Source: a virus. Taken from it: 59,487 nucleotides of DNA. This document shows, in pieces, positions 5,844-58,499 of the stretch. The position numbers and the translations under genes are program-made. The stretch is taken from IMG/VR virus record IMGVR_UViG_3300027896_005002, positions 1 through 59,487 of that record; one strand, written 5' to 3'. Within the stretch, counting starts at the first letter, position 1; every line of letters begins with the position of its first letter. A model generated the notes under the pieces. That model saw only the letters and a program-made list of their open reading frames with translations, searched no databases and was not told where the DNA came from.

Positions 5844-5845
5844 AT

Positions 5846-6283
5846 TTAATCCTTAATTGCAAAAATATCATTAAAAGCCTGAATTAGTCTGTCTTCCAGT
5901 GATGACAAAATATATTTGTCATACAATTTTTTTTGAATTGCTAGCCAATCAATATTACAAACTTTATCATCAAACAAATGATCATAATAAATTTTTCTAC
6001 TAGTATTAAATGACAAAAAAGGCGCATTTTCATTAATTGTATGAATTTTGATATCATTTGCATTTAAGAAATCTAGTGCATTTTGTAGTACCTGACCACT
6101 TCGACATGTCCATAAAATAGTGTGAAAATTATCGTAAATCCAGTTTATAACTTCTTTTGCATATGGAAGTAAAACAAAATTCTTACTATGAACGTCTTCA
6201 TTCAATTGAACAATCGTGCCGTCAAAATCAATTGAAATAATAATTCTGTGTGTGTCTTTAAACAAATTTCCATTTGTATCCAT
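5846..6283 (-). CDS. HAD-superfamily phosphatase-like protein (possible 5'(3')-deoxyribonucleotidase / PNK-phosphatase type)
   Basis: Seen in sequence: HAD motif I, IIISIDFDGTIV (DxDGT), lies close to the N-terminus when the ATG at 6283 is used. The ORF track's longer form starts at a TTG at 6331. The C-terminal part overlaps the GIY-YIG gene end by 26 nt. The family assignment is inferred from motif I alone. Confidence 0.5.
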   Translation of the reverse strand: MDTNGNLFKDTHRIIISIDFDGTIVQLNEDVHSKNFVLLPYAKEVINWIYDNFHTILWTCRSGQVLQNALDFLNANDIKIHTINENAPFLSFNTSRKIYYDHLFDDKVCNIDWLAIQKKLYDKYILSSLEDRLIQAFNDIFAIKD

Positions 6284-35240: not shown

Positions 35241-35512
35241 GTTTGTACCTTTATCACTTTTAGCGGCAATTTTGAATCATCAGGCCATTCCATTTGATAA
35301 CCACAAAACTTCCACCAATTATCACCAAGTTTGCGAATATGGTCCTTCCATTTTTTACTTCGTTCATATTCACGTTCAAACTGCCAACTTGGATTATTCA
35401 AAAAAATTGGAGATGGTGGATTCAATTTTTTCCATGTTTCATACTCATTTTTACAAAACATTATCCATTCTTGTTCTAATTCAAAACTAATATCATCTGA
35501 ATTTTCATTCAT
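35237..35512 (-). CDS. Hypothetical Trp-rich protein (91 aa)
   Basis: ORF with 4-nt overlaps on both sides. Confidence 0.4.
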   Translation of the reverse strand: MNENSDDISFELEQEWIMFCKNEYETWKKLNPPSPIFLNNPSWQFEREYERSKKWKDHIRKLGDNWWKFCGYQMEWPDDSKLPLKVIKVQT

Positions 35513-35733
35513 TTAACTTTACTTGCAAGATAATCAACTAAATCATCAAGTTTGTGAAAATTAGCAATATCTTCATCGGGAATTTCAAGACTAAAAGCTT
35601 CTTCCGTAGCAATTATAAGATTTACACAATCTAAAGAATCAATGTTAAAGGCAGTGGCATCATCTACTATGTCGATACAAAGTTCGTCAGCAATAATTTG
35701 TTTTAATTTGTCTTTAATAGTATTTCTATCCAT
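35509..35733 (-). CDS. acpP: Acyl carrier protein
   Basis: Seen in sequence: a 74-aa acidic protein with the phosphopantetheine-attachment motif FNIDSLDCVNLIIATEEAF (DSLD); GAAAGGA Shine-Dalgarno upstream. Confidence 0.8.
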   Translation of the reverse strand: MDRNTIKDKLKQIIADELCIDIVDDATAFNIDSLDCVNLIIATEEAFSLEIPDEDIANFHKLDDLVDYLASKVK

Positions 35734-35745
35734 AAATTATCCTTT

Positions 35746-38313: not shown

Positions 38314-38603
38314 CTTTTCATATGTTCACGAAGCTTTTTAAAATCATTTGTCATCATTGCATCATTAGCAAGTTCTATCAATTCATCTTGAAATATTCCA
38401 TAAGCAAAATTATATATTCTTGCTTTCTCATTAGCATTTATAGTTTTTTCAATATAATAAGCACATTTATTTGCACTATGAGCATGTGCACCGTTTCCAA
38501 AATTTTTTAATTTCCTAATTACTTCTTCTGCTTCATTTTTTTGATCTAATATCTCATTAAATTTTCGTTCTAACATATTAAGCATCAATTTCAGATTCAT
38601 CAA
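38304..38603 (-). CDS. Hypothetical 99-aa protein encoded between gyrB and gyrA
   Basis: ORF overlapping both gyrase genes (26 nt with gyrB, 10 nt with gyrA); helical and charged. Confidence 0.4.
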   Translation of the reverse strand: MMNLKLMLNMLERKFNEILDQKNEAEEVIRKLKNFGNGAHAHSANKCAYYIEKTINANEKARIYNFAYGIFQDELIELANDAMMTNDFKKLREHMKRWW

Positions 38604-42006: not shown

Positions 42007-42191
42007 ACACTTGCAGCATCAGCTAAGCCATCCGGTCGAGTATCATCATTTTCATCTTCAACCGGTTGTGTATATTTACATTTAGGATAATTCGTACAAC
42101 CTAAAAATCGTTTATTTTCTCTATTTTTTCGTTTAATTAATCTACCATCACATCTAGGACAGTCCCAAATTGTAATATCATCATCTTTCAT
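41997..42191 (-). CDS. Stand-alone topoisomerase-type C4 zinc-finger protein (64 aa) with acidic tail
   Basis: Seen in sequence: WDCPRCDGRLIKRKNRENKRFLGCTNYPKCKYTQP matches the CPxCG..L..R.gR.G.FlGCsnYPkCkyT zinc-finger pattern, of which topA in this window carries two copies. Confidence 0.6.
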   Translation of the reverse strand: MKDDDITIWDCPRCDGRLIKRKNRENKRFLGCTNYPKCKYTQPVEDENDDTRPDGLADAASVWE

Positions 42192-43258
42192 AAAAATATC
42201 GGCCTTTTTTGAATATTACTATTAAGAAACACATTTATATGATCATATCTGTCACAATATTTACACTGCTCAAAGCATTTACTACAATTCAAAAATTTGT
42301 TAACAATATCATAATATTTTTTACTACTATAAATATTACTTAACTTACTTTCTTTAACATTGCCAATTACAAAATCTAATTGTTGTTTGTCCATTGAAAA
42401 AACAGGTTCATACATATAACAACAAGGAAATACATTACCATCTGCAGCTATTAGTCCAAATAATTGAGGAGCAAAACAAGATTTATAATCTATATAATAA
42501 TTTGAAACAAAATGTTTTCTAACGTTACTTTTATCAATTTCTCCGCCATAAATCATTAAATCTTCGAAAATTTTAAGTATTTTAGTTTCTATTGTTTTAG
42601 ACTTTTCATCATTTCTATTTTTTTGTAAATGTGAAATTATTTCTCTCGATAACCATAAGAAAATAGGTACTTGAAAATTGTTTATCCTTAAAAACGATAT
42701 TAGATTTTTAGAAAAATTGTCTATGTTGTACTCATGAATTGTTATATTAATTCTAGTTTCACAATGTGACATTTTATTTTTTTCAAGTAATATTCTTAAA
42801 TTTTCTGTCCATTCATCAAATAAATCAACTCCACGAGTTTCTGCATAATTTTCTCTAGTAAAACCATCAGATGAAAAACGGATCCAATTACAATTTCTTG
42901 ATAATGATGTCCAATCAATATTTGGTTTTCCTAATCCAGAAGTTATTATACCAATATAGTAACCATCAGCTTTTAACTTTTCAATAATTTTTTCAATATC
43001 TTTATGTAATAACGGTTCACCTCCTGAAAAAACTATAGTTTGTAAAGTAGGAAAATTTTTCAATTCATTTAAAACATTTTGTTCTAAAACATCAGTATTA
43101 AGTTTTGTCTTTACGGGCCATTTCCAATGCTCACAACCTTTACATTTACAAACACAAAAATCAGTTAAATTAATTTGCAATGTAACCAAACACTGTTCAG
43201 GAGATGATTTAACTTTATATGCAAATGGTAATAATTTCTCATCAACAGAAAATTTCAT
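42188..43258 (-). CDS. Radical SAM enzyme with C-terminal SPASM/twitch auxiliary Fe-S domain
   Basis: Seen in sequence: LTDFCVCKCKGCEHW contains CxxxCxxC; IVFSGGEPLL; a C-terminal CFAPQLFGLIAADGNVFPCC...FVIGNVKESKLSNIYSS...CSKCFEQCKYCD fits the SPASM cysteine pattern. Confidence 0.8.
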   Translation of the reverse strand: MKFSVDEKLLPFAYKVKSSPEQCLVTLQINLTDFCVCKCKGCEHWKWPVKTKLNTDVLEQNVLNELKNFPTLQTIVFSGGEPLLHKDIEKIIEKLKADGYYIGIITSGLGKPNIDWTSLSRNCNWIRFSSDGFTRENYAETRGVDLFDEWTENLRILLEKNKMSHCETRINITIHEYNIDNFSKNLISFLRINNFQVPIFLWLSREIISHLQKNRNDEKSKTIETKILKIFEDLMIYGGEIDKSNVRKHFVSNYYIDYKSCFAPQLFGLIAADGNVFPCCYMYEPVFSMDKQQLDFVIGNVKESKLSNIYSSKKYYDIVNKFLNCSKCFEQCKYCDRYDHINVFLNSNIQKRPIFL

Positions 43259-43843: not shown

Positions 43844-45007
43844 TTATTCGATATCTATTTCTAACAAATCAACAACATTATCTGAATTTAAATCAATTGT
43901 TGATCCTGTTGTTTTATACATTTCAGACATAAAATTCAAATATGGATCATATCGTAAAATCCTAGATTTATCCGCATCAAATATTAACATTGTATCATCT
44001 ACTCGTCCAGGTTTTAATACCGTAATAGTTTTAGCAATATAATTTGAATCACCTGTATTTTCAAACGACGAATTAACTCTCAAAATTTTAATTCCATCAT
44101 TCAAATAAAGATAATTATTTGCAAGTTTAACCATTCCTAAATATGTAGTATCAGGCACACCTGCTATTACTTGATTTTCAAACATCGAAAAAGAATCTGT
44201 ACCTTCAACTGTTTTTAATATATTTTTAGATTTGCCACAAATAAAAAAGCTATCTACATTATATCCTCTAACAAATCCTGTTGGCATTAATTCATTGCCA
44301 TTATCCATAAGAGGTAAACTTACTTTTTTACTTACAAGATTTGTAGATATTCGTTCAATTTTAATATTTCCACTAGTCGTTAATCCCAATATATATATAT
44401 CATGCGTTATGTCATCGTTGTACAAATAATATGGTTTATGTGTTAATACAGCTGATGTACTATATAAAGTACCACTACCAACAATTGTAATATCAATTGG
44501 TATATTACTCAAAGCATTTTGATAAGTCGTTGCAACTTTAATTAAGTTTGTTGAAACAGCAATAGTATAATATGTAGTATTAACTATTAAAGGTCTTGGC
44601 ATTCTGTCAATGCCAGGATGTTTTAAATTAAATTTTATTGTATCACCTGTATGATAAATATGAGGCGTACCGTCAGTTACAATGTCATCTGTATGATTTG
44701 TTATAGTAATATTATTATCTATATTTGCAGTAACAATATTCATTTTTTGTTGTGTTATATCTGGAAATTGTCCTAAATAAGATAAATTTGAGCCTAATTT
44801 AACAATTCTATTATTATTATAATCGCATAAAAATATAAATTGATTGTCTGAATCAGCAACAACTGATGACGGAAATCGTAATGTGCCTGGCACACCATAC
44901 ACACCATAACTTGTACCGTCATAATGTGATATTGAATTATTTGAATCCAATCTTTTTACAATATGTTTATCTGTACATTGAACAACGTAGGTTTTGAAGT
45001 CACTCAT
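43844..45007 (-). CDS. NHL-repeat (six-bladed beta-propeller-like) fibre protein, paralog family member
   Basis: Seen in sequence: N-terminal YVVQCTDKHIVKRLD...YGVYGVPGTLRFPSSVVADSDNQFIFLCDYNNNRIVKL; C-terminal LNDGIKILRVNSSFENTGDSNYIAKT...LIFDADKSRILRYD. Confidence 0.55.
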   Translation of the reverse strand: MSDFKTYVVQCTDKHIVKRLDSNNSISHYDGTSYGVYGVPGTLRFPSSVVADSDNQFIFLCDYNNNRIVKLGSNLSYLGQFPDITQQKMNIVTANIDNNITITNHTDDIVTDGTPHIYHTGDTIKFNLKHPGIDRMPRPLIVNTTYYTIAVSTNLIKVATTYQNALSNIPIDITIVGSGTLYSTSAVLTHKPYYLYNDDITHDIYILGLTTSGNIKIERISTNLVSKKVSLPLMDNGNELMPTGFVRGYNVDSFFICGKSKNILKTVEGTDSFSMFENQVIAGVPDTTYLGMVKLANNYLYLNDGIKILRVNSSFENTGDSNYIAKTITVLKPGRVDDTMLIFDADKSRILRYDPYLNFMSEMYKTTGSTIDLNSDNVVDLLEIDIE

Positions 45008-45015
45008 ATATATCC

Positions 45016-46899
45016 TTAACTAAAATTTTTTTCTAACAATCCAGAAACATATTTTAAATCTGTAGTTATTGTGCTTCCAGAATCTGTAAATACAGTTTCA
45101 ATAAAATTCAGATTCAAATCATATCTTAAAATTGACATTGTTTCTACATTATATATTAATAAACTATCACCTAATCCAATTGATAATCCATATAATGTCT
45201 TTGAAATAAAATCAGAATAATTAATAATTGTCAAATCTGAACCTTTAATAACAGCTTTTGCTAATCTTTCACCAGTATTCAAAAATATAGCTTGTTGATC
45301 ACTCATCATAACCATTCCTACATATCTTTTTGGCACTTTATCAAATGGTGCAACGATAAGTTGTTTTTCAACAGCTTGAGAAAATGGTGATCCGTTCTCT
45401 AATACACTGTATAAAGTATTTCTTATTCCACAAATTAAAATCTCATTAAAATCGAGCCCTCTACAAAACCAAAATGGTTTGAAATTAAAATTACTTAATT
45501 GACCAAAAAGATTATTAGAATAACCTTGATCAGTCAATGATGTTGATAATTTTTGTATACCAACATACATAAATAAATCTCTACCAGAAATTGTTACAAA
45601 ATTTATTCCCAATACATAAAGAAAGACATTTAATTCATCATAAAATATAGCACATGGTTTACCAATAGTATTACTCGTATTGTATTGATTTGAAAATCGT
45701 AAAAACTCATCCAATTTGATAACTCTTGAATTCTCATAATCACAAACATAAATTTGATTACCGACATCCATAGTAATATTTTGAGGAAAATTTAATCCTG
45801 TTAATCCACTACCGGGTGTCCCAAATATTCCAAAAAAAGCATTATCATATATTGCAGGTACAGGATTTGTCGTATCAAATCGTTTTACTACATGCTTTTT
45901 AGTTTGTTGTACAATAAATAATTTATTTCCAGTAAGAGGTACTGGTGTATAAACACCATTAAGAGCGCCTATTGTTGTTATGCCTAATGTACGGACATCA
46001 CCATTAAAATCATCAATAGGAACATCATTATCAATATTATGACCAATTGCATTAAAAAAACATGGACTATTATCAATTGGATTAAATAATGCTGCTGCTG
46101 GATTTTCAAGTAAAGGATTTAAAAATCTCAAATTATGAGAACCAATATATGCACTGACATTACTAAAATCAGTTCCTCCATGTGGCGCAAAAGTAATGTT
46201 ATAATCAATTGACAATCCACCACCACCAACATTACCATCAGAATTAATACATGTATCATTTTGGCTCGAAAATATATTATTTAATATTTTACCTTGATGA
46301 ATATTAATTAAATTTATACCAGTTTGACCAGTATATAGAGTATTACTAACTATAACAATATTCGTGACGCCTGAACCTTCTCGTGTTTCTATAAAATTCG
46401 TTAATGCATCAAATTGTCCAGTATTAGTAAAAATACTATTAATTACTTTTAATGAAATAGAGCCTTGTGAATATCGATCGAGTACAGATGCATGATCAAA
46501 ATAACATTGTTCTACAAAAATTGATGTTTGATGATATGCAGCAATTACATTAGTATAATAACCGGCACCAGTAATTTTAAGTTGATATAAATAGACAGAC
46601 CCTGGTGATCCAGATCTATCAAAAGCAATAGATACTAATTCAGTATCATCTCGTAATGGAATATGCCATGTCGGTTTATTTATATTACTTGGCCATGATT
46701 GTATAGTTAATGAAAATGGAACTAATAAAAAATTACCTAATTCAGGTTCCATAATAATACCATTGTCTACTACATCAATTGTATCATCATTTGCAAGTCC
46801 TGGTATTCCTGCTATAAGACCAGTCAAAGAATGATATCCTTCATTAGGAATTAAACCTGTTTGCGTTGTAGACCCAGCATTCAAAAAATAAGTTGTCAT
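45016..46899 (-). CDS. Fibre or tailspike-like protein: N-terminal right-handed beta-helix-like region followed by NHL-repeat region
   Basis: Seen in sequence: N/I/T-rich ~22-aa rungs (TNIVIVSNTLYTGQTGINLINIHQGKILNNIFSS), then LFIVQQTKKHVVKRFD...FGIFGTPGSGLTGLNFPQNITMDVGNQIYVCDYENSRVIKL. Confidence 0.5.
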   Translation of the reverse strand: MTTYFLNAGSTTQTGLIPNEGYHSLTGLIAGIPGLANDDTIDVVDNGIIMEPELGNFLLVPFSLTIQSWPSNINKPTWHIPLRDDTELVSIAFDRSGSPGSVYLYQLKITGAGYYTNVIAAYHQTSIFVEQCYFDHASVLDRYSQGSISLKVINSIFTNTGQFDALTNFIETREGSGVTNIVIVSNTLYTGQTGINLINIHQGKILNNIFSSQNDTCINSDGNVGGGGLSIDYNITFAPHGGTDFSNVSAYIGSHNLRFLNPLLENPAAALFNPIDNSPCFFNAIGHNIDNDVPIDDFNGDVRTLGITTIGALNGVYTPVPLTGNKLFIVQQTKKHVVKRFDTTNPVPAIYDNAFFGIFGTPGSGLTGLNFPQNITMDVGNQIYVCDYENSRVIKLDEFLRFSNQYNTSNTIGKPCAIFYDELNVFLYVLGINFVTISGRDLFMYVGIQKLSTSLTDQGYSNNLFGQLSNFNFKPFWFCRGLDFNEILICGIRNTLYSVLENGSPFSQAVEKQLIVAPFDKVPKRYVGMVMMSDQQAIFLNTGERLAKAVIKGSDLTIINYSDFISKTLYGLSIGLGDSLLIYNVETMSILRYDLNLNFIETVFTDSGSTITTDLKYVSGLLEKNFS

Positions 46900-46907
46900 T
46901 TTATTCC

Positions 46908-49493
46908 TTATAAAGTATTGGTTTCTGCTATGTCTTCAACATCATAAGCATCAGTACCAATAGTTCCATCAGTATTTGAATAAACAATATTAACAAAATT
47001 TAAATTTGTATCATATTTTACTATTTTTTGTTTATCAGCATCATAAAGCATGAGTGTTTCATCTAGTTCACTTAATTTTAATCCTATTAATGTCTTTGTT
47101 ATAAAATTTGTGCGACCAATACGTTCAAATGATGAATTAACTTTTATAACACTTTTACCATCATTAAGATATAAAAATCCTTCATCAGAAACAATACCTT
47201 TATATAAAACTTGAGATTCACCAACATCACATATTATATTTTTTCTAACAAATAATGAAAAACTATTATCAGATTCTACAGTTTGATACAATGCTAAATT
47301 TACACCAGATATTAAAATACTATTAGCATCAAATCCCAAACATATACCGGTTGGATAATGTATTACATCACCAGGATTATTTAAATTTCCACTAACTTTT
47401 AAACTACTTAATGATGTAGATAACTTTTCTATTCTAATTTGATATGCATAATTAGATGTAAAAAAAACACCGACAACATATAATGAATTATTATTGTCAT
47501 CATACATAATTACCACTGGATTGCCAATTGTAGAAATTGTACTATATTTACTAACAAAATTTAATGTAGAATTTAATTTAACAATTCTATTATTAACTGT
47601 GTCACATACATAAATATTATTATCACCATCAATTGTAATACCATTTGGATAATTTAACATTGAATCTGTCGTTCCAGGCGTTTGATATACTCCAAATTCA
47701 TGTCCATCATATATTGCAGGTATTATAGAAGAATCTAAACTCTTTATAATATGACGTTTTGTTCGTTGTGTTAAATACATTTTAATAGTTGGTAAAACTG
47801 TAAAATCTACTGCACCTATTCCTATACGAACAGAATTCCATAAGCCTTGTTCATATTCTGTATAAGGAGGATTTCCGGGTTGTGTAGGTGTCAATGTTCC
47901 CACTGCTAATATAGAATTAGAAAAATTTGATCTACTACCATCCCATATAGGAGGAGGAGGTTGAATCCATCCAACTTGACAGTTAGTTAAAGTAGGTCTT
48001 ACAAGAGGCGCTACAGACATTGCACTATTTTTAAATATACCATCATCGACGTTTGCAGTTGATCCAAGTAAACAATCTATAAAAGTTGATTGCTTGTTAA
48101 AATAGACTGCACCAATACCAATTCTATTTGATCCCCATAAACCTTTTTCATATCCTACATAAGGTGCAATTCCGGGTTGTGGGGGACTTTCAGTACCCAA
48201 AGAAAGTATAGAATTATAAAATCCCTGTTTATCACCATCCCATTGCGGAACGGTAGGTTGAGTCCATCCTACTTGACATTCATCTACTAATCCACCTATT
48301 TGAGGAGTGTCAGCCATAGCACATCTTACAAAATTACCATTGTCAACATCTACAACAGATCCAAGTAAGCAATCTACAAACACTGATGGTGCTAAAACAT
48401 TTATATATCTATTCTTTAAAAGTTCAACATATCTCACTCTTAACATCACATTAAATTTTCCTGAATTATAATAATCGTGAGAAGGATTCTCGTCTGCTGA
48501 ATGACCTCCATCACCAAAATCCCAATAATAATCTAAAGAAAAACCCAATGGATTAGACACAATATGTAAAAAATCTACATGAAGCGGGTGAAATCCTACT
48601 CTGGGAGACGCAGAAAAATCACTCTGCACCATCACCATCCATGACCTTCCTAATAAAACATCTAAAAACTTATTTGACGGTGATGCATTGACGTCAGAAA
48701 TGCCAACCTTTACAAAGATACTCAAATCAAAGTTCCATATATACAAATCTGTCCCTACTCCTACATACAATATTCCATAATCATTATCTAAATATATGCT
48801 ATTAATGTTTCCTGGAATAGACCCTAAAGTAGAAGTTACTCCATTATACATATATAAGATAGTGTTTCCTGAACCATCGGGAGCATAAAAATATACTATC
48901 TCTCCTGTAGTTGTATATCCACCTACTCCTCTTCCCACATAATCAGTTTCCACAAACTCACTGGTTAATGAGTTCCATTTCGCAAAATATCCTATATCTG
49001 GATTAGATATTCTAGTTCCACAAGCATACATATTAGAAGGCGTATTAAAAATTTTAATGCTTTGTATTTCATAAGGAAAAGAAAAAAGTTGAACAGAATC
49101 AGTCATATCAAAAAAACCATAAAAATTAGCGGTATAAATATGACCGTTAAAATACGTTATAGATTCATACCCGCCTGTATAGAATGGAATACCTCTCCAA
49201 GCCAACCATCCTTCCTCTTCAGTCCAAGTATGTACAGCATTAAAAGTCCCACATATATATATTTTTGTTCCATCTGTAGTTAAATCAAGAAAGGCATCAA
49301 TTGAACCCGACATTTGAGAAGATGCAAACCAATTAAAAAGATCCGAAGTATAATACAATATTTGCCCTGTATATCCAAAATCACCTCGATTCATGGCAAA
49401 TATCTTGCCTCCACAAATAGCATATCTACTATCTCCCCCAGAAGCAAGAAGATGAATTAATATTTGATTATAATTAAAATCAGGTGCTGACAT
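46908..49493 (-). CDS. Fibre protein: beta-propeller, PKD domain, two ~95-aa Cys-containing tandem modules, NHL-repeat region
   Basis: Seen in sequence: PKD motif YYWDFGDGGHSADENPSHDY. Tandem modules FVDCLLGSVVDVDNGNF...CQVGWTQP...GLWGSNRIGIGAV and FIDCLLGSTANVDDGIF...CQVGWIQP...GLWNSVRIGIGAV. YLTQRTKRHIIKSLD...NNIYVCDTVNNRIVKL. Confidence 0.55.
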   Translation of the reverse strand: MSAPDFNYNQILIHLLASGGDSRYAICGGKIFAMNRGDFGYTGQILYYTSDLFNWFASSQMSGSIDAFLDLTTDGTKIYICGTFNAVHTWTEEEGWLAWRGIPFYTGGYESITYFNGHIYTANFYGFFDMTDSVQLFSFPYEIQSIKIFNTPSNMYACGTRISNPDIGYFAKWNSLTSEFVETDYVGRGVGGYTTTGEIVYFYAPDGSGNTILYMYNGVTSTLGSIPGNINSIYLDNDYGILYVGVGTDLYIWNFDLSIFVKVGISDVNASPSNKFLDVLLGRSWMVMVQSDFSASPRVGFHPLHVDFLHIVSNPLGFSLDYYWDFGDGGHSADENPSHDYYNSGKFNVMLRVRYVELLKNRYINVLAPSVFVDCLLGSVVDVDNGNFVRCAMADTPQIGGLVDECQVGWTQPTVPQWDGDKQGFYNSILSLGTESPPQPGIAPYVGYEKGLWGSNRIGIGAVYFNKQSTFIDCLLGSTANVDDGIFKNSAMSVAPLVRPTLTNCQVGWIQPPPPIWDGSRSNFSNSILAVGTLTPTQPGNPPYTEYEQGLWNSVRIGIGAVDFTVLPTIKMYLTQRTKRHIIKSLDSSIIPAIYDGHEFGVYQTPGTTDSMLNYPNGITIDGDNNIYVCDTVNNRIVKLNSTLNFVSKYSTISTIGNPVVIMYDDNNNSLYVVGVFFTSNYAYQIRIEKLSTSLSSLKVSGNLNNPGDVIHYPTGICLGFDANSILISGVNLALYQTVESDNSFSLFVRKNIICDVGESQVLYKGIVSDEGFLYLNDGKSVIKVNSSFERIGRTNFITKTLIGLKLSELDETLMLYDADKQKIVKYDTNLNFVNIVYSNTDGTIGTDAYDVEDIAETNTL

Positions 49494-51437
49494 TTATTCC
49501 TCTGTAATATAAAGATGTCCATAAACAGTTAATCCTTTTCCCACTATTCCACTAACATCTATATTAGTAGCTATCAATACTACATCCTTACATTCATACA
49601 TTCTATGTATATCTCCTCTTGTATATAGTATAGCATCTTTTATCCTTGAATCAGTGTTATCAAAAGTATCTTCAGGCACCAAACGTAAGTCCCCGACACC
49701 TATATTCCCTATTCTCCAATTTCCATTTATATCTGGCATTTGACTTTGCCAGTGATTACTATAAATTCCAAGTATCTCTTCTACATCCGTATTTAACGTT
49801 CTTATTCCTTTAATACTAAAATAATTTTCTATCTGATTAGAAGAAGAATATACCTTTAACTCATCATATGTAAATTGATCATTAAATGTTCCTAAATGTC
49901 CCGATCCTGTATAAGAATTATCTATTGTTGCATAAAGACATGTAAAATTAAATAATGTTTCAACAATATTACTTGGTATATAATTAGTCTTATATGCTTT
50001 TGCACGAAGTGTTACTCCATCTAAAGCTATATAGAAAGGATTTACATAAAGTAAAGAAGAAGGAGAAGGTTCTGTACCATCAAGAGTATATCTTATAGAA
50101 ACCCCAGGAGTAGAACATGATAATCTTACCAAAACTGGATTTGTAAAACTCCCTCCATTAGGATCAATTATAGGATCTTCACAAAATGGCGTTTGTGCAT
50201 CTATATAAGCAATTTTTGTATTTTCAACTATTCCCCATCCAGATATAGTAGCTCTTAGTACTACTGTATAAGTGTTAATCGCTGTATAAATATGAGATGG
50301 ATTTTGAGTACTGCCATGAGATGATCCATCTCCAAAATCCCAATCCCATACTGTTATCCTATCTGAAGGTTGGGTAAGGTCTGTAAAATTAACTGTCAAC
50401 GGAATGGGTCCTGAAACAGGGTCTCCACTAAAATCAGCTGCAGGTTCTAATACAGAAATATAATTTATTTTTATCTTAGAATGCGGCCCAGATTCATCTG
50501 TAACTATAAGTGATATAGTATACTGGTTTGGTACATTATATAAATGCGGCGGAGGGGTCTGTAAAGAACTATGCAATGATCCGTCTCCAAAATCCCAATC
50601 CCAACTTATTGGACTTGGCCATGTAGATAAATCAGTAAATTGTACAGTAGAACCTGCATACAATGATGTCGGGGTACCTGAAAAATCAGTTCTTATTGTA
50701 CTTTCATATTCAAAAATGTCCTCCTGTTGAGAATTTGCATAAAGAACTTCGGTTGGCGTAACACACATACCTAACCAATTATGGAATGGTTGTCCCAAAG
50801 CAACAAAATCTCCAATACCCGCTGTTCGTTTATAAACATCTCCTGCATAATCACTTATATAGACATCCCCATTAGAAAGATCAGATGCTATACCATAATA
50901 CCATAAAGGATGTCCATCTCGTATAAAAGGTAAACCCAGTGGAATAAAATCTCCAATACCCCCAGCTTGTACAAAAATATCATCTTCCCAAGAAGCTGCA
51001 TAAATATCACCATTTAAGGCGGAACCCATGCCTCTCCAAGCTCTCGTAGTCTGAGTCTGTTCTATCCAATCAACTCCAACTTGTTTAAATATTTTCCAAT
51101 CATTTATTGCTAAATATATATCACCATTAGGTGCGACTGTTACTGCAAATGCACCGCTATCTGAGTCTACATATATAAAATCACCAATACCTCCACTCCT
51201 TTTAAACAAACCATCACCATAGGACACTACATAAATATCCCCGGTATTCGGATTAGCAGCCATATTTGTCCAATTTAATTGTTGTTGATTTAAAGCAATA
51301 AAGTCACCGGATCCTCCTGCTTGTATATAAATATCTCCACCATTACCAATGCAAGCATAAACGTCACCATTAGGCGCAGCGGTCATCCCAGACCATCCTA
51401 AGGCTCCTTGATTTAATGCTACAAATTCATAAGGCAC
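49494..51437 (-). CDS. Fibre protein: ~40-aa beta-propeller-type repeats (GDIY...GG.GDF), two PKD domains, chitobiase-C/Fn3-like domain
   Basis: Seen in sequence: repeats GDVYACIGNGGDIYIQAGGSGDFIAL, GDIYVVSYGDGLFKRSGGIGDFIYV, GDIYAASWEDDIFVQAGGIGDFIPL. PKD motifs WDWDFGDGSLHSS and WDWDFGDGSSHGSTQNPSHIY. SIRYTLDGTEPSPSSLLY. GTG start at 51437 preceded by AGAGGT. Confidence 0.55.
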   Translation of the reverse strand: MPYEFVALNQGALGWSGMTAAPNGDVYACIGNGGDIYIQAGGSGDFIALNQQQLNWTNMAANPNTGDIYVVSYGDGLFKRSGGIGDFIYVDSDSGAFAVTVAPNGDIYLAINDWKIFKQVGVDWIEQTQTTRAWRGMGSALNGDIYAASWEDDIFVQAGGIGDFIPLGLPFIRDGHPLWYYGIASDLSNGDVYISDYAGDVYKRTAGIGDFVALGQPFHNWLGMCVTPTEVLYANSQQEDIFEYESTIRTDFSGTPTSLYAGSTVQFTDLSTWPSPISWDWDFGDGSLHSSLQTPPPHLYNVPNQYTISLIVTDESGPHSKIKINYISVLEPAADFSGDPVSGPIPLTVNFTDLTQPSDRITVWDWDFGDGSSHGSTQNPSHIYTAINTYTVVLRATISGWGIVENTKIAYIDAQTPFCEDPIIDPNGGSFTNPVLVRLSCSTPGVSIRYTLDGTEPSPSSLLYVNPFYIALDGVTLRAKAYKTNYIPSNIVETLFNFTCLYATIDNSYTGSGHLGTFNDQFTYDELKVYSSSNQIENYFSIKGIRTLNTDVEEILGIYSNHWQSQMPDINGNWRIGNIGVGDLRLVPEDTFDNTDSRIKDAILYTRGDIHRMYECKDVVLIATNIDVSGIVGKGLTVYGHLYITEE

Positions 51438-51594
51438 TGTAACCTCTATTCTGTTTAATTATTCTTTAAACATTATGTATTTTTATTATACAATATAAAA
51501 CTCATTTATATCATCTCATATAAATTCATTATAAAGATCACTGTTTTCGCACTTATTATCCAAATTAAAAACTACTTTTATATATCATTTGCTT

Positions 51595-52818
51595 TTAAAC
51601 AGAAACAGTTTTTCTACTTTTATTTGATATCTCAATATTTTTCTTTAAAGAATCTTTAATATTTTCATTATCACTATTTCTATATTTTATCCTTAAATTA
51701 TCATCATGATCAATATGAATTAATGAAGTGAAAGCAAATGAATGTTCATACAATCCAATATCAATAAACTTATGAAAAATATCTTCATCTTCATATCCAT
51801 ATCCATTCATCGACTCATTGAACCCATTTACCCTTTTAAAATTTGATAATTCAACAAAAAATGTACCTAACGTATGTCTATCATTAGGCAACCCTCCTCT
51901 AAAAAAACAATTTTTTACTTCAAAAATATTTAAATTACTTGCAATTTTTACATCTGAATCTATAAACATTACATACTTTGTAGTAACAAATTTAGCTCCA
52001 AAATTTCTTGATTTAGATCCATGAAATTCTTTTTGTCCATCTACTCGTATAATTTTTACCAATTTATTGAGCTCTTCAATTTCTTGCAAATTTATATCAC
52101 TAGACCAATCAACGACAATAATATTAGTAAAACCATAATTTAACCATGATTTATAACTCTGTAACAGGAAACTTTCTCGATTCATGCACACAGTAACTAA
52201 AGTAACATCATCATTATTAAAATTAAAATTAATTTTTGGATAATTAGATAAAAATTCATGACCTTCAAATTTAACTAAAATTTTATTATTATCTTGTCTA
52301 GTAAAACAAATATCTTGATTTGAAATTTGCTGCCATAATCCTGCAATATTATTTAATGTTAAACCAATAGCAAGATGTTTAAAATATCCTTCAGGTATTA
52401 TTTGAAATCTATGCTTATACTTAGCTAATAAACTAGACATGTGTCGTTTATCAAAAACAGAAAAATTATTTATAATTTCATACACTAATTCACGATCATT
52501 ATGACTTATATACATAACACATTCATAAGGACCTTTAAATAAATAGGATAACTCAGGATTAAAATCAAACCATTTAGTAATAATTATGTCAGAATCCATC
52601 CATATAGAATCAGGATTATCCCTCAAATATTGTAGTCGAAATAAAGAACTAGCAAATCGAATGTCTGAAAATTTAGACAAATCAAAATTTTGTGGAAACT
52701 TAGTAATTAATTTATATTGAACATTCTGTGGTTTATCATTTTTAATTTTATCCATGAAAAATTTGTAACATTCTGGAATTTTATCACTATTGAAAAACTG
52801 TACAATCTTCATGTTCAT
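51595..52818 (-). CDS. Two-domain glycosyltransferase (N-terminal DXD sugar-binding GT32-like domain; C-terminal GT2/GT7-like domain)
   Basis: Seen in sequence: ASSLFRLQYLRDNPDSIWMDSDIII matches the Gly_transf_sug pattern (R.L.yL...GG/ds.yiDtD). C-terminal VTLVTVCMNRES...NIIVVDWSSD...VMFIDSDV...GYGYEDEDIFHK is GT2/beta-4-GalT-like. Confidence 0.6.
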   Translation of the reverse strand: MNMKIVQFFNSDKIPECYKFFMDKIKNDKPQNVQYKLITKFPQNFDLSKFSDIRFASSLFRLQYLRDNPDSIWMDSDIIITKWFDFNPELSYLFKGPYECVMYISHNDRELVYEIINNFSVFDKRHMSSLLAKYKHRFQIIPEGYFKHLAIGLTLNNIAGLWQQISNQDICFTRQDNNKILVKFEGHEFLSNYPKINFNFNNDDVTLVTVCMNRESFLLQSYKSWLNYGFTNIIVVDWSSDINLQEIEELNKLVKIIRVDGQKEFHGSKSRNFGAKFVTTKYVMFIDSDVKIASNLNIFEVKNCFFRGGLPNDRHTLGTFFVELSNFKRVNGFNESMNGYGYEDEDIFHKFIDIGLYEHSFAFTSLIHIDHDDNLRIKYRNSDNENIKDSLKKNIEISNKSRKTVSV

Positions 52819-52832
52819 TTATTCCAAATTGA

Positions 52833-54128
52833 TTATGCTGGAAAATTTGATTGATCATACCATACCCAATAAGAGATATATGCTGTATCAGTCCAATTAT
52901 TATACAGTCCTACTTTAACCGAATCAATTGCTGGATCATGATAAATAGCAGGATCACTATGTTTTGCATCTAGCATATATACATTTAATGTTCCAGGATT
53001 TGTTCTACTAGATGCTGAAAGATGTACCGGATCAGCATTATAAATAAAAGTAATAACTACATTACCATATTGATTATTAGTAAAATGAAAAAAACCAGAA
53101 ACCATATTTGTTAATGGTTCATCACCTGGTAAATAAGCTGTAATAAAACCAAAACCAACAAGACTTCGACTACCAGTACCTTCTGTAAAAATAATTGGTA
53201 AATCTTCTTGCTCTGCCAAATATATTCTATCAGCCTTAAAATGCGCTCCAACTGATGTAGGCGGGTCAGGATGACCAACAGGATCACCACCATAAAGAGT
53301 TTTATTTGCTACACTATACCAAATACTATTTACGGCATCATTACCTGTATCATAAATAGCAGTATATGGCGAATTAATAATTACTCTTGCTGGACTTATT
53401 GGCCATAAATTAATATCTGTAGAACAATAAATTCCAGTACTAGCACCAGCCCCGCTATTATCACCAATACTTAAAAAATTAAAAGTTGATTCATTAACAT
53501 AATTAAAAATAACAGAAAATATACCAGGATCTAAAAATGTTGCAAGAACAGATCCTATATATGTTGCAAATCCTACACCATTAACTATCATTGTACTATA
53601 AAAACTTGAGTCTATCGCTACATAAGGAACAAAACTTATAACGGCAGTACTATCTTCAATTTCAAATTTTGACACTAATGGTGCATTTCCAATACCAACA
53701 TTAGTTCCATCAGTTTTTACTGGCGATGAAGCTATAGAACTTGCACTAGTAAATTTCGCCAAATAACCGGATGATCCTGATCCAGCAAATGCTCCTGAAA
53801 TACCTGAATAACCACTAATTCCTTGCGTACCTGGTGGTCCTTGTATTCCTTGTGAACCAATATGCCCTGAATAACCTGAATAACCTGAATAACCTGAATA
53901 ACCAGATATACCTTGAGCACCAGAATATCCAGAAAAACCAAGACCTGAATATCCTGAAAATCCAGTGACAAAATGATTGCCATCTTTGTCTTTCATAACA
54001 ACATGATGAGTATCATTTGCAATTCCAGCTTGACATGGATCTAAATTTGCAATTAAATCTACTTCAGTATTATTTATCCATGTTATATGTTTTGGCACTG
54101 AATTAGGTTCATTATATTGATTACCCAT
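52833..54128 (-). CDS. Collagen-like GYSG-repeat fibre protein with C-terminal globular domain (431 aa)
   Basis: Seen in sequence: GFSGYSGLGFSGYSGAQGISGYSGYSGYSGYSGHIGSQGIQGPPGTQGISGYSGISG. Strong AAAGGAGA Shine-Dalgarno. Confidence 0.65.
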   Translation of the reverse strand: MGNQYNEPNSVPKHITWINNTEVDLIANLDPCQAGIANDTHHVVMKDKDGNHFVTGFSGYSGLGFSGYSGAQGISGYSGYSGYSGYSGHIGSQGIQGPPGTQGISGYSGISGAFAGSGSSGYLAKFTSASSIASSPVKTDGTNVGIGNAPLVSKFEIEDSTAVISFVPYVAIDSSFYSTMIVNGVGFATYIGSVLATFLDPGIFSVIFNYVNESTFNFLSIGDNSGAGASTGIYCSTDINLWPISPARVIINSPYTAIYDTGNDAVNSIWYSVANKTLYGGDPVGHPDPPTSVGAHFKADRIYLAEQEDLPIIFTEGTGSRSLVGFGFITAYLPGDEPLTNMVSGFFHFTNNQYGNVVITFIYNADPVHLSASSRTNPGTLNVYMLDAKHSDPAIYHDPAIDSVKVGLYNNWTDTAYISYWVWYDQSNFPA

Positions 54129-54137: not shown

Positions 54138-55088
54138 TTACGGAAAAAATTCAACAAAATCTGAAATATCATATGCATCAGTTGCTATTAACCCATCATT
54201 AGGATATGAATATACATCATCTATATATGTTAACTCTGAATCAAATCGCATAATTTTTCTTTTATTTGCATCATATGTCAACAATTGACCGGTCATTCTA
54301 TTTTCAGTTAATCCTAATAATGACCTGGAAATATTCTGCGTGTTGCCAATTTTATTAAAAGTGCTATCAACTCTAATTAATTTTTGCCCATTATTAAAAT
54401 AATAATCATCATTGGAATGTTTAATCACTTTATTGTAATTTGTATCAGTAAATGTACTATAAATTGTTCCTTTAGTAGTCTCACCATGGATTACCTGTCG
54501 AACTAAAGGTGAAAATGTTTGTGTTGCAAAATAATAATTTGTAATATAAATATATTCATCTATTCCAGTAATAAAATATTGAATATATACAGTTTCAAAA
54601 TCAGGTGTAGGTGATACAAAATAAAAACCTGTAGGCTTACAATTATTATTCTTTAAAGTATATAAAACATCACTCACAACAGGATCTGTTAAACTATTTG
54701 CTGATAATTTTATTATTCTAAGATTTAATTTAGAATCAACTACAATTACAAATATATTATCTTGCAGCATAGTAACTCGCCATTCATAACTTATTGCATA
54801 GGGATAACCATAATTCTCTGTTAAATATGATGCAACAAAAAATCCTTCTGGAAAAAAACTATCAAGTAAAAGTACTCTTTTATTACCAGTATCAGAGATA
54901 TAAAAATTAGTATTCGACAAACTAACATCTGAAATACATTGGGGACAATTCAATTTTGTGAGGGAATTTCCTGGAATACCAAATACACCAAATTCAATAC
55001 CATTATACACTGCAGGATCAACAGTAGCATCCAGACTTTTCAAAATATGACGTTTTGACCTTTGCGTCAAATAAATTGTTCTCGACAT
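54138..55088 (-). CDS. NHL-repeat fibre protein, paralog family member (316 aa)
   Basis: Seen in sequence: MSRTIYLTQRSKRHILKSLD...FGVFGIPGNSLTKLNCPQCISDV...DTGNKRVLLL; C-terminal FNNGQKLIRVDSTFNKIGNTQ...LLTYDANKRKIMRFD. Confidence 0.5.
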   Translation of the reverse strand: MSRTIYLTQRSKRHILKSLDATVDPAVYNGIEFGVFGIPGNSLTKLNCPQCISDVSLSNTNFYISDTGNKRVLLLDSFFPEGFFVASYLTENYGYPYAISYEWRVTMLQDNIFVIVVDSKLNLRIIKLSANSLTDPVVSDVLYTLKNNNCKPTGFYFVSPTPDFETVYIQYFITGIDEYIYITNYYFATQTFSPLVRQVIHGETTKGTIYSTFTDTNYNKVIKHSNDDYYFNNGQKLIRVDSTFNKIGNTQNISRSLLGLTENRMTGQLLTYDANKRKIMRFDSELTYIDDVYSYPNDGLIATDAYDISDFVEFFP

Positions 55089-55107
55089 ATAACTTTGTCT
55101 CCATAAA

Positions 55108-56526
55108 CTAAGAAATTTCTACAATATCTGTTACGTCATATGCACTTGTCTGAAGTGTATCTCCAGTACCATGAAATACATTCTCAATAAAATTAAGATT
55201 TGCACTATATCTCGAAATTGTTTGTGTATCAGCATTATATATTAACAATGACTGATATCTAGGATCGTGAATGTCACCAACATTACTAACTTTTAAACAA
55301 CGAATAGTTTTTGCAATAATATCCGTATCACCTTCATTTACAAAACTACTATTAACTCTCAAAATTTTTCGACCATTATTAACAAAAATATATCCATTTG
55401 GATGTTTTACAATCGCATTAAAAGCTGTATTCATAAATTCATTTGGCCACGTTGGTAATTCACCAATTACAGTTTGTGTAGTAAAAACAGAAAAGTTTGT
55501 TGATTCAATTGTTTGAAATAAACTACCAACAGCATAACCGCCATTAATAGGGCGCACATTTGGTAAATAAACAGTCCAAGGAAAATGTGTTCCTGAACCA
55601 TTTGTTGATGTAACATTTACTACTAAATTACCATTTATATGATTATATGAAGTAATAGTCCCTTGCATATTATTAGATACATCGTACTTAATAATAATAT
55701 TTTGCCCTGCAGAAAATGCTAAACCTGTTCCTATAACAAGTGATTGACTGCCAGTTCCAATAGTTAAATGCGTCGATGATGATGTTGTTGAACTAGTTGC
55801 ATAAGTAGGACTTGAAACAACTCTAGCAGCTCCACTTACTATAAAACTATTTGAAGCAAATCCTCTACAAATTCCCGTCGGTCTAAACCACGCAGTTTGT
55901 ATATTGTTTAAATTTCCACTAACTTTTACACTAACTAAATTTGTTGTAAGTCTTTCAATTCTAATAAAAGGACCACTATGATCTGGTAAATAAACAGACC
56001 AAGAAGAATATGTTCCTGAACCATTTATTGATAATACATTAACAACTAATTGACCATTTATCGGATTATAAGAAGTAATCATTCCTTGCATGTTAATTGA
56101 TGGATTATTAAAATATTCAATAATAATATTTTGTCCGACTGAATATGACAAACTCGTTTGTATAACTAGAGATTGACTACCCAATCCAACAGTTAACGAT
56201 GTTATTGATGTTGATGATGGTGGTTCTCCTGCACCCATGCCAACTACATACAAATCATTTGTAATATCATCATACATTATAGCATATGGTTTACCTATAG
56301 TATTTGCAGTACTATGCTCTGAATGATACGTTAAATTGGGATAAAGTTTTACAACTCTTGAATGATCACAAACAAACCAATATCCACTATTTGCAACACC
56401 CCATGGATAATTTAATGTACTATTAGTCTCACCTTTAACACCAAACGTACCAAAACTATCACCTACAACACCATTATTTACGGCTTTAACAACATGACAT
56501 TTAGTTCTTTGTGTAAAATGAATCAT
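55108..56526 (-). CDS. NHL-repeat fibre protein carrying two copies of the beta-sandwich module also found in the giant GYSG protein
   Basis: Seen in sequence: LTVGLGSQSLVIQTSLSYSVGQNIIIEYFNNPSINMQGMITSYNPINGQLVVNVLSINGSGTYSSWSVYLP and HLTIGTGSQSLVIGTGLAFSAGQNIIIKYDVSNNMQGTITSYNHINGNLVVNVTSTNGSGTHFPWTVYLP. These align with TLTIGTGSQTLTIGTQLAYSIGQEILIVYDASNSMKGNVVVYNPVNGYFVVNVTSIIGSGTYSNWNVSL from 1..5843. Confidence 0.55.
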   Translation of the reverse strand: MIHFTQRTKCHVVKAVNNGVVGDSFGTFGVKGETNSTLNYPWGVANSGYWFVCDHSRVVKLYPNLTYHSEHSTANTIGKPYAIMYDDITNDLYVVGMGAGEPPSSTSITSLTVGLGSQSLVIQTSLSYSVGQNIIIEYFNNPSINMQGMITSYNPINGQLVVNVLSINGSGTYSSWSVYLPDHSGPFIRIERLTTNLVSVKVSGNLNNIQTAWFRPTGICRGFASNSFIVSGAARVVSSPTYATSSTTSSSTHLTIGTGSQSLVIGTGLAFSAGQNIIIKYDVSNNMQGTITSYNHINGNLVVNVTSTNGSGTHFPWTVYLPNVRPINGGYAVGSLFQTIESTNFSVFTTQTVIGELPTWPNEFMNTAFNAIVKHPNGYIFVNNGRKILRVNSSFVNEGDTDIIAKTIRCLKVSNVGDIHDPRYQSLLIYNADTQTISRYSANLNFIENVFHGTGDTLQTSAYDVTDIVEIS

Positions 56527-56588: not shown

Positions 56589-58499
56589 TTAAAATAATCC
56601 TTCGCTAGCTAACCTTGCAACAAAAGCTTCTGTATTATCATAAGTTTCTACATTGCCATTTTTATCAACAATATACTCTTCAAGTACAGGTTGACCATTT
56701 TCTTCTTTATAATTAGTCTTTATTGTAATATAACCATCACCTTGCTTTACAGTGTCAACTGTTGAATAACTTTTGTTTGATTCAGCAAAAGTTACCTCAG
56801 GCATTGTAATAACTTCATCAAAAATATCATCTACTACTTGAGCAATCCTTTCATTAACTGATGATTTCTTTTTCTTCTTCTTGTCTTCTTTATAATGAGG
56901 TTCTGGCTTCTTCGTTAATTTTCCACCAGGACCCCATTTTTCACCAGGTTTCTTTTTTGACATCCACCAACTATTATGAACAAAAACACCTGCATCTAAA
57001 GCAAAATTATGATACTTATCAACCGTAAAATCATAGACATCTTCTTTAACATCAAGTACTTTTGCACTAACAACTTTATGATTAATTTTTAATTGGTACT
57101 TTTTCTCTGTTTCAAAAATAAGATTATCTAAAGTACCAAAAGTTTTGATAGCAGTACAAAAATCAGGATTGTTAATTGAATGTCTATGTTCATCCCATGT
57201 ATTTTCATTAATTGGTAAATTAGCTTCAATAATTCTTTTTGTTACTTTCATTGATTTTGCTTTTACCATATTACCAAATTTAAATTTTTCATCTACATTA
57301 ATTTTAATTTGATCAACTGTACCAAAGTGTAAAATTGCTGTAGAAAAAGATGGATTACTTTTGTATCCCATATGCTCAAACCATGTATTTTCATTAATTG
57401 ACAACCCATAATCCATTATTCTTTTTGCTATCCTCAAAATTTTTGATTTTGTAATCGTGCCATCAATATTTCTTTCTCTAATAGCTTCAATTGCTTCTTC
57501 AGATTCATTATATTTTCCTAAAGCAATTTTTCCAGCTTCAGCACCTAACATTCCATTTTCCTTACAGTTTTTAATTTGCTCACCGCGATGCTTTTGCCAC
57601 AATAATTTCATATTACGTCTTCCAATAATAGACGCCATTATTCGACCTTCTTCAGACTTATTATATTCAATTAGATATTTTGCACAATCAGCTCTACGAT
57701 GAAGTATTGAATGTTCACTACCAGTAAGTAATTTGATATTATTTGGATGGTTATTATCTTTATTAAAATCGTCATGATGATTAATAAAACCTCTTGTCCA
57801 TTCTTTACCAAACTTCATCTTAGCAACAAGTCTATGAACAAAATGTTTTTTTCCATCATTCGACCAACATCGTTTATAACCGTCACAAAAACTTCCTTCA
57901 TATCTATCAAAATAAATCGGCATCAAAGATTCATTACATTGCAAATTCTGAGCTTCTTTATAAGAACCATCAATTAACATAAACTTATGATTTTTAGTAC
58001 ATCTAATTGATTGTCCATTATCAAGAATAATCTCAATAAGCTCAGCATTATTAATTGTTTTATGAAAATTAAATGCTTTTCCTACAACAATTTTATTTTG
58101 ATCAACATCAAAAGAATAAACAAATGTTTCTTTATCTATACCAAATTCATCAACTAATTGTTTTATTGATAACACTCTTCCATCCAACAGTGGTACTTTA
58201 GTATCACCAGTAAAACACAATGCCCAAGGATTTGTAATATTCTTGTGCTTTTTCATTGCACGTGTTGTTCCTCCCCATCCTGGAGGAGATACAGCTACTT
58301 TTTCGTTTGCCAATACTTCACTGGCAACACGATCAATATTTTCATTCATACTACCTCTCCTTAAACGATTCTTAAATTGTTCCTCGATTAGTTCTTTACC
58401 ATCACTCGGCAAATCAACAAATCTCTTCTCTAACTGATCATGTCCATTTTCGGCATAATCAGTTCGTTCACGTAATGGCTGTAACTTCTCGTCTAACAT
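56589..58499 (-). CDS. Intein-containing precursor of a ~221-aa Lys/Trp-rich protein of unknown function (94-aa N-extein, 415-aa intein, 127-aa C-extein)
   Basis: Seen in sequence: the extein junctions are ...NITNPWAL | CFTGDTKVPLLDG (intein block A, Cys1) and ...VYDFTVDKYHNFALDAGVFVHN | SWWMSKK (terminal His-Asn, Ser+1). Block B TxxH is IRCTKNHKFML. Confidence 0.75.
   Translation of the reverse strand: MLDEKLQPLRERTDYAENGHDQLEKRFVDLPSDGKELIEEQFKNRLRRGSMNENIDRVASEVLANEKVAVSPPGWGGTTRAMKKHKNITNPWALCFTGDTKVPLLDGRVLSIKQLVDEFGIDKETFVYSFDVDQNKIVVGKAFNFHKTINNAELIEIILDNGQSIRCTKNHKFMLIDGSYKEAQNLQCNESLMPIYFDRYEGSFCDGYKRCWSNDGKKHFVHRLVAKMKFGKEWTRGFINHHDDFNKDNNHPNNIKLLTGSEHSILHRRADCAKYLIEYNKSEEGRIMASIIGRRNMKLLWQKHRGEQIKNCKENGMLGAEAGKIALGKYNESEEAIEAIRERNIDGTITKSKILRIAKRIMDYGLSINENTWFEHMGYKSNPSFSTAILHFGTVDQIKINVDEKFKFGNMVKAKSMKVTKRIIEANLPINENTWDEHRHSINNPDFCTAIKTFGTLDNLIFETEKKYQLKINHKVVSAKVLDVKEDVYDFTVDKYHNFALDAGVFVHNSWWMSKKKPGEKWGPGGKLTKKPEPHYKEDKKKKKKSSVNERIAQVVDDIFDEVITMPEVTFAESNKSYSTVDTVKQGDGYITIKTNYKEENGQPVLEEYIVDKNGNVETYDNTEAFVARLASEGLF
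56973..58217 (-). mobile_element. Intein (Hint domain split by an HNH homing-endonuclease domain and two copies of a ~45-aa helical repeat)
   Basis: Seen in sequence: I mapped the boundaries codon by codon (Cys1 codon at 58215-58217; terminal Asn codon at 56973-56975). The HNH-like region is HFVHRLVAKMKFGKEWTRGFINHHDDFNKDNNHPNNIKLLTGSEHSILHRR. The internal duplicates are NENTWFEHMGYKSNPSFSTAILHFGTVDQI and NENTWDEHRHSINNPDFCTAIKTFGTLDNL. Confidence 0.75.

Follow-up and report, generated by a model that had tools for sequence, protein, structure and literature searches.

Glycosyltransferases (GTs) that aquatic phages encode among their tail-fibre genes are usually taken to modify the host surface or DNA. 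A two-domain GT gene lying between fibre genes in the IMG/VR virus record IMGVR_UViG_3300027896_005002 raises the question again: what are its two domains, and on which molecule do they act? The whole stretch of DNA analysed, 59,487 nucleotides, is called the window here. The protein was found to have two intact GT-A domains, with metal and nucleotide-sugar binding motifs kept in both, and the stand-alone relatives of its N-terminal domain are regularly encoded directly behind fibre-like genes in other phages. The gene would thus code for a soluble cytoplasmic bifunctional GT which decorates the fibre proteins of the phage before or during virion assembly, a reading to which we give a probability of about 0.55. 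The features on which the argument depends are as follows, in positions of the window.

51595..52818, minus strand: two-domain GT gene, an ATG-to-stop open reading frame (ORF) of 407 residues in the ORF list
52243..52818, minus strand: N-terminal domain (residues 1 to ~192), predicted compact GT-A domain of an undescribed DxD family
52636..52653, minus strand: ASSLFR, residues 56-61, at the S-D-x-x-R helix motif of the family
52588..52596, minus strand: DxD motif of the N-terminal domain, D75-S76-D77
52372..52398, minus strand: IPEGYFKHL motif with P142 and H148
51706..52200, minus strand: C-terminal domain (residues 207-371), a GT2-type GT-A domain with a GT7 (beta-1,4-galactosyltransferase-like) C-terminal region
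51952..51960, minus strand: DxD motif of the C-terminal domain, D287-S288-D289
51775..51804, minus strand: GYGYEDEDIF, acidic motif of the GT7-like region
52833..54128, minus strand: collagen-like fibre gene, 431 residues, with Pfam Collagen and PHROG tail-fibre matches
49494..51437, minus strand: PKD fibre-like gene; its product has two PKD domains and one CHB_HEX_C domain (Pfam)

The gene and its product

The ORF and the two peptides on which the original prediction was built, RLQYLRDNPDSIWMDSDIII at residues 61-80 (window 52579..52638) and GYGYEDEDIF at residues 339-348, were confirmed at their exact coordinates. An independent contig of the Joint Genome Institute, L001, with 99.56% nucleotide identity over 4.8 kb, carries the same fused gene with the same fibre ahead of it, and therefore the fusion is real and not an artefact of assembly. 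Among the proteins found, the fusion of the two domains was seen only in this phage and this 99% twin. The gene call on L001 uses an alternative start, Met3 at 52812, and since this call fits the family consensus start MKI.QY, the true start is possibly 52812 and not 52818. The maximum Kyte-Doolittle mean over 19 residues is 0.97 and no transmembrane segment is predicted; the product is a soluble protein.

The N-terminal domain

An exhaustive HMMER search of 1.84 billion representatives returned 54 relatives of the N-terminal domain, all of them stand-alone proteins of 121-209 residues (median 178). Column counts were made over the 55 members formed by the target and these relatives, whose overall identity is about 25%. 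Both aspartates of the DxD motif, D75 and D77, are identical in 55/55 members, H148 is found in 54/55, and P142 and R61 are each present in 52/55. Conservation of the DxD motif and of H148 to this degree, at about 25% identity, gives the pattern of a conserved active site, in which H148 may be the third metal ligand, by analogy with GT8-type enzymes. The family signature reads R..SD..R..LL..NP...W.D.D, then NG, then IP.GYF.HL, and with it the catalogue gains a GT-A family not annotated before, clearly marked by S-D-x-x-R, W-x-D-x-D and I-P-x-G-Y-F-x-H.

An AlphaFold model of the whole protein made without an alignment was discarded for its low predicted local distance difference test score (pLDDT 33). 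The N-terminal domain modelled with an alignment (pLDDT 88.6; predicted template modelling score, pTM, 0.84) is a single Rossmann-like alpha/beta/alpha domain which superposes on solved GT-A enzymes, with the DxD motif placed directly behind a central strand (residues 71-74). The top Foldseek match was A64R of PBCV-1 (E 2.5e-6, TM 0.51), followed by the collagen glycosyltransferase LH3, the GT6 blood-group transferase (4ayl), LtpM and mimivirus R699, and the matches among viral predicted structures were GT34, GT8, DXD and GT25 proteins. All of the fold matches are nucleotide-sugar transferases, and the best ones are mostly protein-glycosylating, retaining enzymes. The chemistry of the N-terminal domain is probably retaining as well, as judged from these structural neighbours.

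Going by the model, the N-terminal half forms a compact GT-A domain with a DxD motif, and its family is absent from the curated libraries. Residues 1-196 gave no Pfam match even at E<=1 and no PHROG or NCBIfam match, and tblastn of the domain against 50,697 phage records gave no match even at E<=1. The Gly_transf_sug profile PF04488 was matched by 0/55 members, and Caps_synth weakly by 3/55, the target not being among the matches at E<=1. IMG/VR was scanned by a pattern-based, insensitive method, the queries being the whole protein and a subfamily alignment, and no relative was found; two scans of 185,579 species genomes, equally pattern-based and insensitive, likewise gave none with the patterns tried. 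Owing to this insensitivity the absence of relatives is weak evidence.

The C-terminal domain

The C-terminal half had been described as GT2/GT7-like, and the Pfam profiles bear this out: PF00535 (GT2) was matched at 40 bits over residues 207-291 (cut-off 23.3), PF10111 (Glyco_tranf_2_2) at 34.8 bits (cut-off 27.3) and PF02709 (GT7 C-terminal) at 34 bits over residues 318-371 (cut-off 23). With this half in GT2/GT7 profiles and the N-terminal half in a GT-A fold, neither was placed in a non-GT family. The DxD motif is invariant in an alignment of the target with eight relatives and aligns to FVDSDD of GalT1 (PDB 5hea), and GYGYEDEDIF aligns with WGWGGEDDDIF of beta-1,4-galactosyltransferase 1. 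The target retains 16/16 of the subfamily-invariant positions, including R214, D237-W-S-S240 (VDWSS), N272, D287, D289, E335, D344, D346 and H371. On these profile matches the domain is classed as an inverting-type GT2/GT7 enzyme. Thus, of the assignment of the two motifs to retaining and inverting families, the inverting part stands with GT2 and GT7, which are inverting families, and the retaining part agrees with the best structural neighbours of the N-terminal domain, from which its chemistry is deduced by analogy.

Relatives of this half were found in ten metagenomic proteins (P0002-P0011) and in one cyanophage GT2, that of Synechococcus phage S-SCSM2R. All of them match the C-terminal half only, with 28-32% identity along the entire C-terminal domain; they share its VDWSS, DxD, G(W/Y)(D/E)D.D and H..H motifs and are all without the N-terminal DxD domain. 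One stand-alone relative lies on a cyanophage-like contig among GT47, GT29 and sulfotransferase genes, and another in a polysaccharide cluster with GT1, GT2, GT11, GT61, an ATP-binding cassette transporter and an epimerase. Such multi-enzyme clusters for glycan building fit a chain-extending role, in which sugar is added onto sugar.

Pairing of the DxD gene with fibre genes

In the window, the collagen-like fibre gene lies upstream of the GT gene in transcription with a gap of 14 nt, and the PKD fibre-like gene lies downstream of it after 157 nt. The 431-residue fibre has a G-X-Y run of 51 residues (64-114), mostly of GYS and GIS triplets, and an SGYLAKFT neck. The original prediction had placed the gene between these two fibre genes, correctly, and had argued from this position that the GTs act on the neighbouring fibre proteins. 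This argument is now much stronger because the stand-alone relatives of the N-terminal domain follow a fibre-like gene in every context examined, which supports the claim computationally. The contexts were those of stand-alone family members where the DNA could be read, nine besides the window; in 9/9 of these a virion fibre-like gene stands directly upstream, and the start of the DxD gene lies a few bases from the stop of the fibre-like gene or overlaps it. They are given below by contig, with the upstream gene product and the placement of the DxD gene.

L002: protein with PHROG tail-fibre matches; the DxD gene overlaps its stop
L003: 846-residue GYSGYSG collagen-like fibre; the DxD gene overlaps its stop
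L004: 417-residue collagen-like protein; the DxD gene is directly next
L005/L006: 354-residue fibre with an LPKF neck; the DxD gene is directly next
L008: 409-residue fibre at 633..1862 with a GYLAKFT neck; the DxD gene at 1847..2410 overlaps its end and is followed by an 824-residue collagen-like fibre
L011 (P22-like), L012 and L013: fibre of the L008 kind; three-gene cassette as in L008
L009/L010 (38.7-kb P22-like podophage): 642-residue Kelch-propeller protein; overlap of 26 nt

The L008 contig served as a prospective test, the context of its subfamily being previously unread, and the pairing held. The presence of P22-like podophages among the contigs indicates that the pairing is no peculiarity of one lineage, and the small podophage structural modules with the DxD gene have no other called sugar genes. 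A profile of the L008, L011 and L012 fibres scored 21.8 bits on the 431-residue fibre of the window, against a best score of 10.0 among 1000 shuffles, with collinear matches in the neck (residues 104-145) and in the C-terminal domain (residues 294-425). The fibre and GT pair of the window therefore belongs to the fibre/DxD module. The L002, L003 and L005 fibres share a C-terminal domain (E 1e-27 to 1e-9), and the DxD subfamilies track the type of the upstream fibre; the family is coupled to several kinds of fibre and not to one domain.

A few further observations were made on these contigs. In L008 (2426..4900), L011 (8961..10277) and L012 (2481..4205), which carry the subfamily closest to the domain of the window, a very long collagen-like fibre stands behind the DxD gene, so that the transferase gene has a fibre gene on each side. 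These long downstream fibres begin with MPTI..C.DCGTPGATG and have GFYGQTGIQGLT-type repeats. The protein upstream in L007 (1..90) has a probable C-terminal poly-Thr tail (TTTT...APTTTTTTTTTPEP), which with 90 nt only is anecdotal. In L009 (8098..10026) a TTTTESPTTAAPTTPAP linker lies between the Kelch propeller and the PKD-like end, and this protein can be read as having a Thr/Pro-rich linker and a PKD-like WDFGDG end. The Thr-rich stretches of the L007 and L009 upstream proteins resemble typical O-glycosylation targets.

Proposed function

In the mechanism that we propose, the N-terminal domain would be the fibre-specific initiating enzyme, which transfers the first sugar from a nucleotide sugar onto the hydroxyl of a Ser, Thr or Tyr residue of the fibre, probably with retention. 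The best candidate acceptor in the fibre encoded at 52833..54128 would be its collagen-like G-X-Ser region or its neck, with GYSGYSGYSG and SGYLAKFTSASS as candidate types of acceptor peptide. The product of 49494..51437 may be a further substrate, as may be compared with the PKD-like/Kelch protein upstream of the DxD gene in L009. The C-terminal domain would then add a second, beta-linked sugar, and by the fusion of the two domains a short glycan could be made in a single encounter with the fibre.

Certain points weigh against this proposal. The order in which the two domains act is a guess, and the fibre is assigned as the substrate from gene order and fold. The TM-scores of the N-terminal domain to solved structures are only about 0.5. 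The target carries S58 where 34/55 members carry Asp, and H106 where 51/55 carry Asn (N107 adjoins it, giving His-Asn in the target in place of Asn-Gly); these are mild departures from the family consensus. A single conserved acceptor domain was tried and rejected, as the profile of five fibre C-termini did not score above shuffles on the fibre of the window. The place just behind a fibre gene is also where the small gene for a fibre assembly chaperone classically lies.

We also propose, at slightly under even odds, that a module of two genes, for a fibre and a dedicated GT-A transferase of about 180 residues, is present in many uncultivated tailed phages ranging from P22-like podophages up to huge phages, that the fibres are often collagen-like with G-X-Ser or G-X-Thr triplets, and that fusion to a second, chain-extending transferase has upgraded this module in the present phage. 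If this is true, phages would widely use O-glycosylated tail fibres in host recognition or immune evasion, and this would have gone unrecognised. No description of such a module of a fibre and a mini-transferase was found in the literature searched, and glycosylation of tailed-phage virions was found documented, as far as the search went, only for mycobacteriophage capsid and tail-tube subunits. A fibre-coupled transferase family would recast the GTs among fibre genes as the makers of sugar coats on the receptor-binding apparatus itself, with consequences for host range, resistance to proteases and antibodies, and phage engineering.

Alternative explanations

The enzyme may instead remodel a host surface glycan (lipopolysaccharide O-chain, capsule or surface layer) during infection, for example to block superinfection, and its location would then be explained by a hypervariable host-interaction region. 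This is the published interpretation of the GTs among pelagimyophage tail-fibre genes (PMC7029224); it agrees with the polysaccharide-type clusters in which stand-alone relatives of the C-terminal domain occur and with the other sugar genes of the window, a dehydratase-like gene and a 1019-residue multi-GT protein. It leaves unexplained, however, the gene-to-gene coupling with fibres in the 9/9 other contexts, small podophage structural modules included. The protein is also without a membrane segment, its closest N-terminal folds are protein GTs and not enzymes of lipid-linked glycans, and the 185,579 species genomes gave no relative with the patterns tried. We consider host-glycan remodelling unlikely. 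Still less probable is glycosylation of modified bases in the phage DNA against restriction, the least favoured of the explanations weighed here: it is a common role of phage GTs, and genes for a kinase-like AAA_18 protein and a protein of the uracil-DNA glycosylase superfamily lie nearby, but no hydroxymethylase-type gene was seen among the ORFs scanned, the gene sits in the fibre block and not in the replication block, and this reading would not explain why, in structural modules, pairing with fibre-like genes is conserved.

In another reading, the N-terminal family would be a fibre assembly chaperone, or a fibre-bound accessory, in which the GT-A fold is merely retained, and only the C-terminal domain would be catalytic. 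It is well established that tail-fibre assembly proteins are typically encoded by short genes which overlap a fibre gene at its end; the tracking of fibre type by the DxD subfamilies is what a chaperone and its client would show, and the target lacks the common D58 and N106. What speaks against a chaperone is the conservation of DxD and H148 in a family otherwise so divergent, together with the fusion here to a bona fide glycosyltransferase. The target and five stand-alone members gave no match to a Pfam or PHROG chaperone family, the fold is that of GT-A, and its matches are all nucleotide-sugar transferases; this explanation is given little weight. A similarly small weight is given to action on virion proteins other than the adjacent fibre, for instance on the capsid or on the giant G-Y-S protein encoded at the window's left end, in which case the neighbourhood would be only loosely informative. 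The giant protein is far richer in potential acceptor sites (155 GYS triplets) than the 431-residue fibre, and the mycobacteriophage glycans cited in PMC12619734 are on capsid and tail tube. Such targets would be a variant of fibre glycosylation without contradicting it, and the capsid gene is already adjoined by a multi-GT gene of its own and its protein has no Ser/Thr-rich extension.

Comparison with known systems

The nearest fold of the N-terminal domain is the N-terminal domain of PBCV-1 A64R (PDB 2p6w, 2p72), a viral GT for the major capsid protein. The identity between the two is only 10-12% and no sequence profile links them; A64R belongs to a giant virus of eukaryotes, has a capsid as its target and lacks a partner fibre gene. 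The toxin-type GTs (TcdB/TcdA, YGT, Legionella SetA and LtpM, YeGT, lymphostatin) are effectors on eukaryotic host proteins and have 450-550 residues with extra helical subdomains, whereas the N-terminal domain has about 190 residues, of which 156 align with TcdB. Matches of the family profile in the PDB were marginal and restricted to the motif (E 0.024 for the GT domain of the YGT toxin and 0.23 for Legionella SetA; range 0.024-0.24), the family motif SD.LR...D.D aligning with SDiLR of the former and SDmLR of the latter. In the S-D-x-x-R helix which lies ahead of the DxD motif in the toxin-type GT44 enzymes, the Arg is kept in the target (R61) and the Asp is replaced by Ser. Membership of GT44 was not adopted on account of these marginal values and of the lack of the full domain of about 540 residues.

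Enzymes of the GT32/Gly_transf_sug/Caps_synth group, such as Och1, are structurally less similar to the N-terminal domain than the toxin-type enzymes and A64R. The original prediction had called this half GT32-like; the DxD motif and, in the model, the GT-A fold are there, and the GT32 part of the label finds no profile match. On the basis of the model, the label should better be replaced by an undescribed DxD GT-A family nearest to the retaining protein GTs of toxin type and A64R type. A Gtr-type (GtrB-like) O-antigen enzyme was also rejected, as the protein has no transmembrane helix and its neighbours are fibre genes.

For the proposed activity, one parallel is SgtA of C. difficile, encoded beside bclA3, which puts O-linked N-acetylglucosamine (O-GlcNAc) on Thr of the collagen-like G-P-Thr repeats of BclA3 and accepts Ser peptides too (PMC7157674). 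These G-P-Thr repeats resemble the G-X-Ser triplets seen in the phage fibre. SgtA differs in being a GT2-type inverting O-GlcNAc transferase with tetratricopeptide repeats, and involves neither a phage fibre nor a DxD mini-domain. Mimivirus L230 glucosylates collagen-like proteins by a GT domain of about 194 residues (PMC9614988). As with SgtA, a GT-A enzyme is here encoded beside a collagen-like surface protein, or reserved for one, and glycosylates its repeats. The acceptor of L230 is hydroxylysine and its GT domain is joined to a hydroxylase, again with no phage fibre and no DxD mini-domain. In mycobacteriophages, capsid and tail-tube subunits are reported to carry glycans at their C-termini (Freeman et al. 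2023, as cited in PMC12619734). There too phage-encoded GTs decorate structural proteins of a tailed phage, the reported targets being capsid and tail tube and not the fibres.

Genomic setting and minor observations

The window derives from a large tailed phage, and its large ORFs all lie on the minus strand; its genes code for an HK97-type capsid protein, a terminase-like protein, gyrase A and B, topoisomerase I, DnaJ and an intein. The best match of the terminase-like protein, at 27% identity, is in a 485-kb uncultured phage. Topoisomerase I and both gyrase subunits (33201..40491, minus strand) have full-length, high-scoring Pfam matches, and the possession of its own topoisomerase and gyrase is consistent with a very large genome.

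The spacer behind the GT gene (51438..51594) is AT-rich and, with its 157 nt against 0-62 nt for the other gaps of the fibre block, by far the largest, which suggests a boundary of a transcription unit right behind the GT gene. A scan for promoters and terminators was uninformative: it gave 55 promoter-like sites for 51.6 expected, and the fibre and GT genes had no terminator between them. At the left end, 3..5852 (minus strand) is a stop-free frame of at least 1950 residues which runs off the window; about 1200 residues are in G-X-Y runs, dominated by GYS and other G-x-S triplets. By its repeats, which are of the type found in the 431-residue fibre, it is classed as a giant collagen-like protein and would be a further candidate substrate for glycosylation. 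Five fibre-like proteins at 43844..49493 and 54138..56526 (minus strand) have a common module beginning with a motif like (Y/I)(L/F)TQR(T/S)K(R/C)H(I/V)(I/L/V)K, with Pfam NHL-repeat matches in 3/5, which suggests that a single phage has a set of paralogous receptor-binding proteins of propeller type.

The first multi-domain GT of the window is the 1019-residue ORF 16202..19261 (minus strand), with three GT2 stretches, a weak GT7C match and methyltransferase domains. It lies directly downstream of the HK97-type major capsid gene (19354..20226, minus strand), an order of capsid then GT which parallels that of fibre then GT. The 249-residue short-chain dehydrogenase encoded at 10895..11644 (minus strand) has matches to dTDP-glucose 4,6-dehydratase over the N-terminal Rossmann part and again over the C-terminal third; it seems to be without the middle of that enzyme and may be a truncated or minimal sugar-nucleotide enzyme. 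A radical S-adenosylmethionine/SPASM enzyme (42188..43258, minus strand) is encoded at the edge of the fibre block, adjoining the kinase-like AAA_18 gene. Its top NCBIfam matches, all far under the cut-offs, were a tungsten-cofactor maturase and other peptide or cofactor maturases, and it could be another protein-modifying enzyme. Lastly, the 636-residue protein encoded at 56589..58499 (minus strand) is split by an intein that contains an HNH endonuclease (77 bits to Pfam Intein_splicing), and the protein which hosts the intein has no family match of its own.

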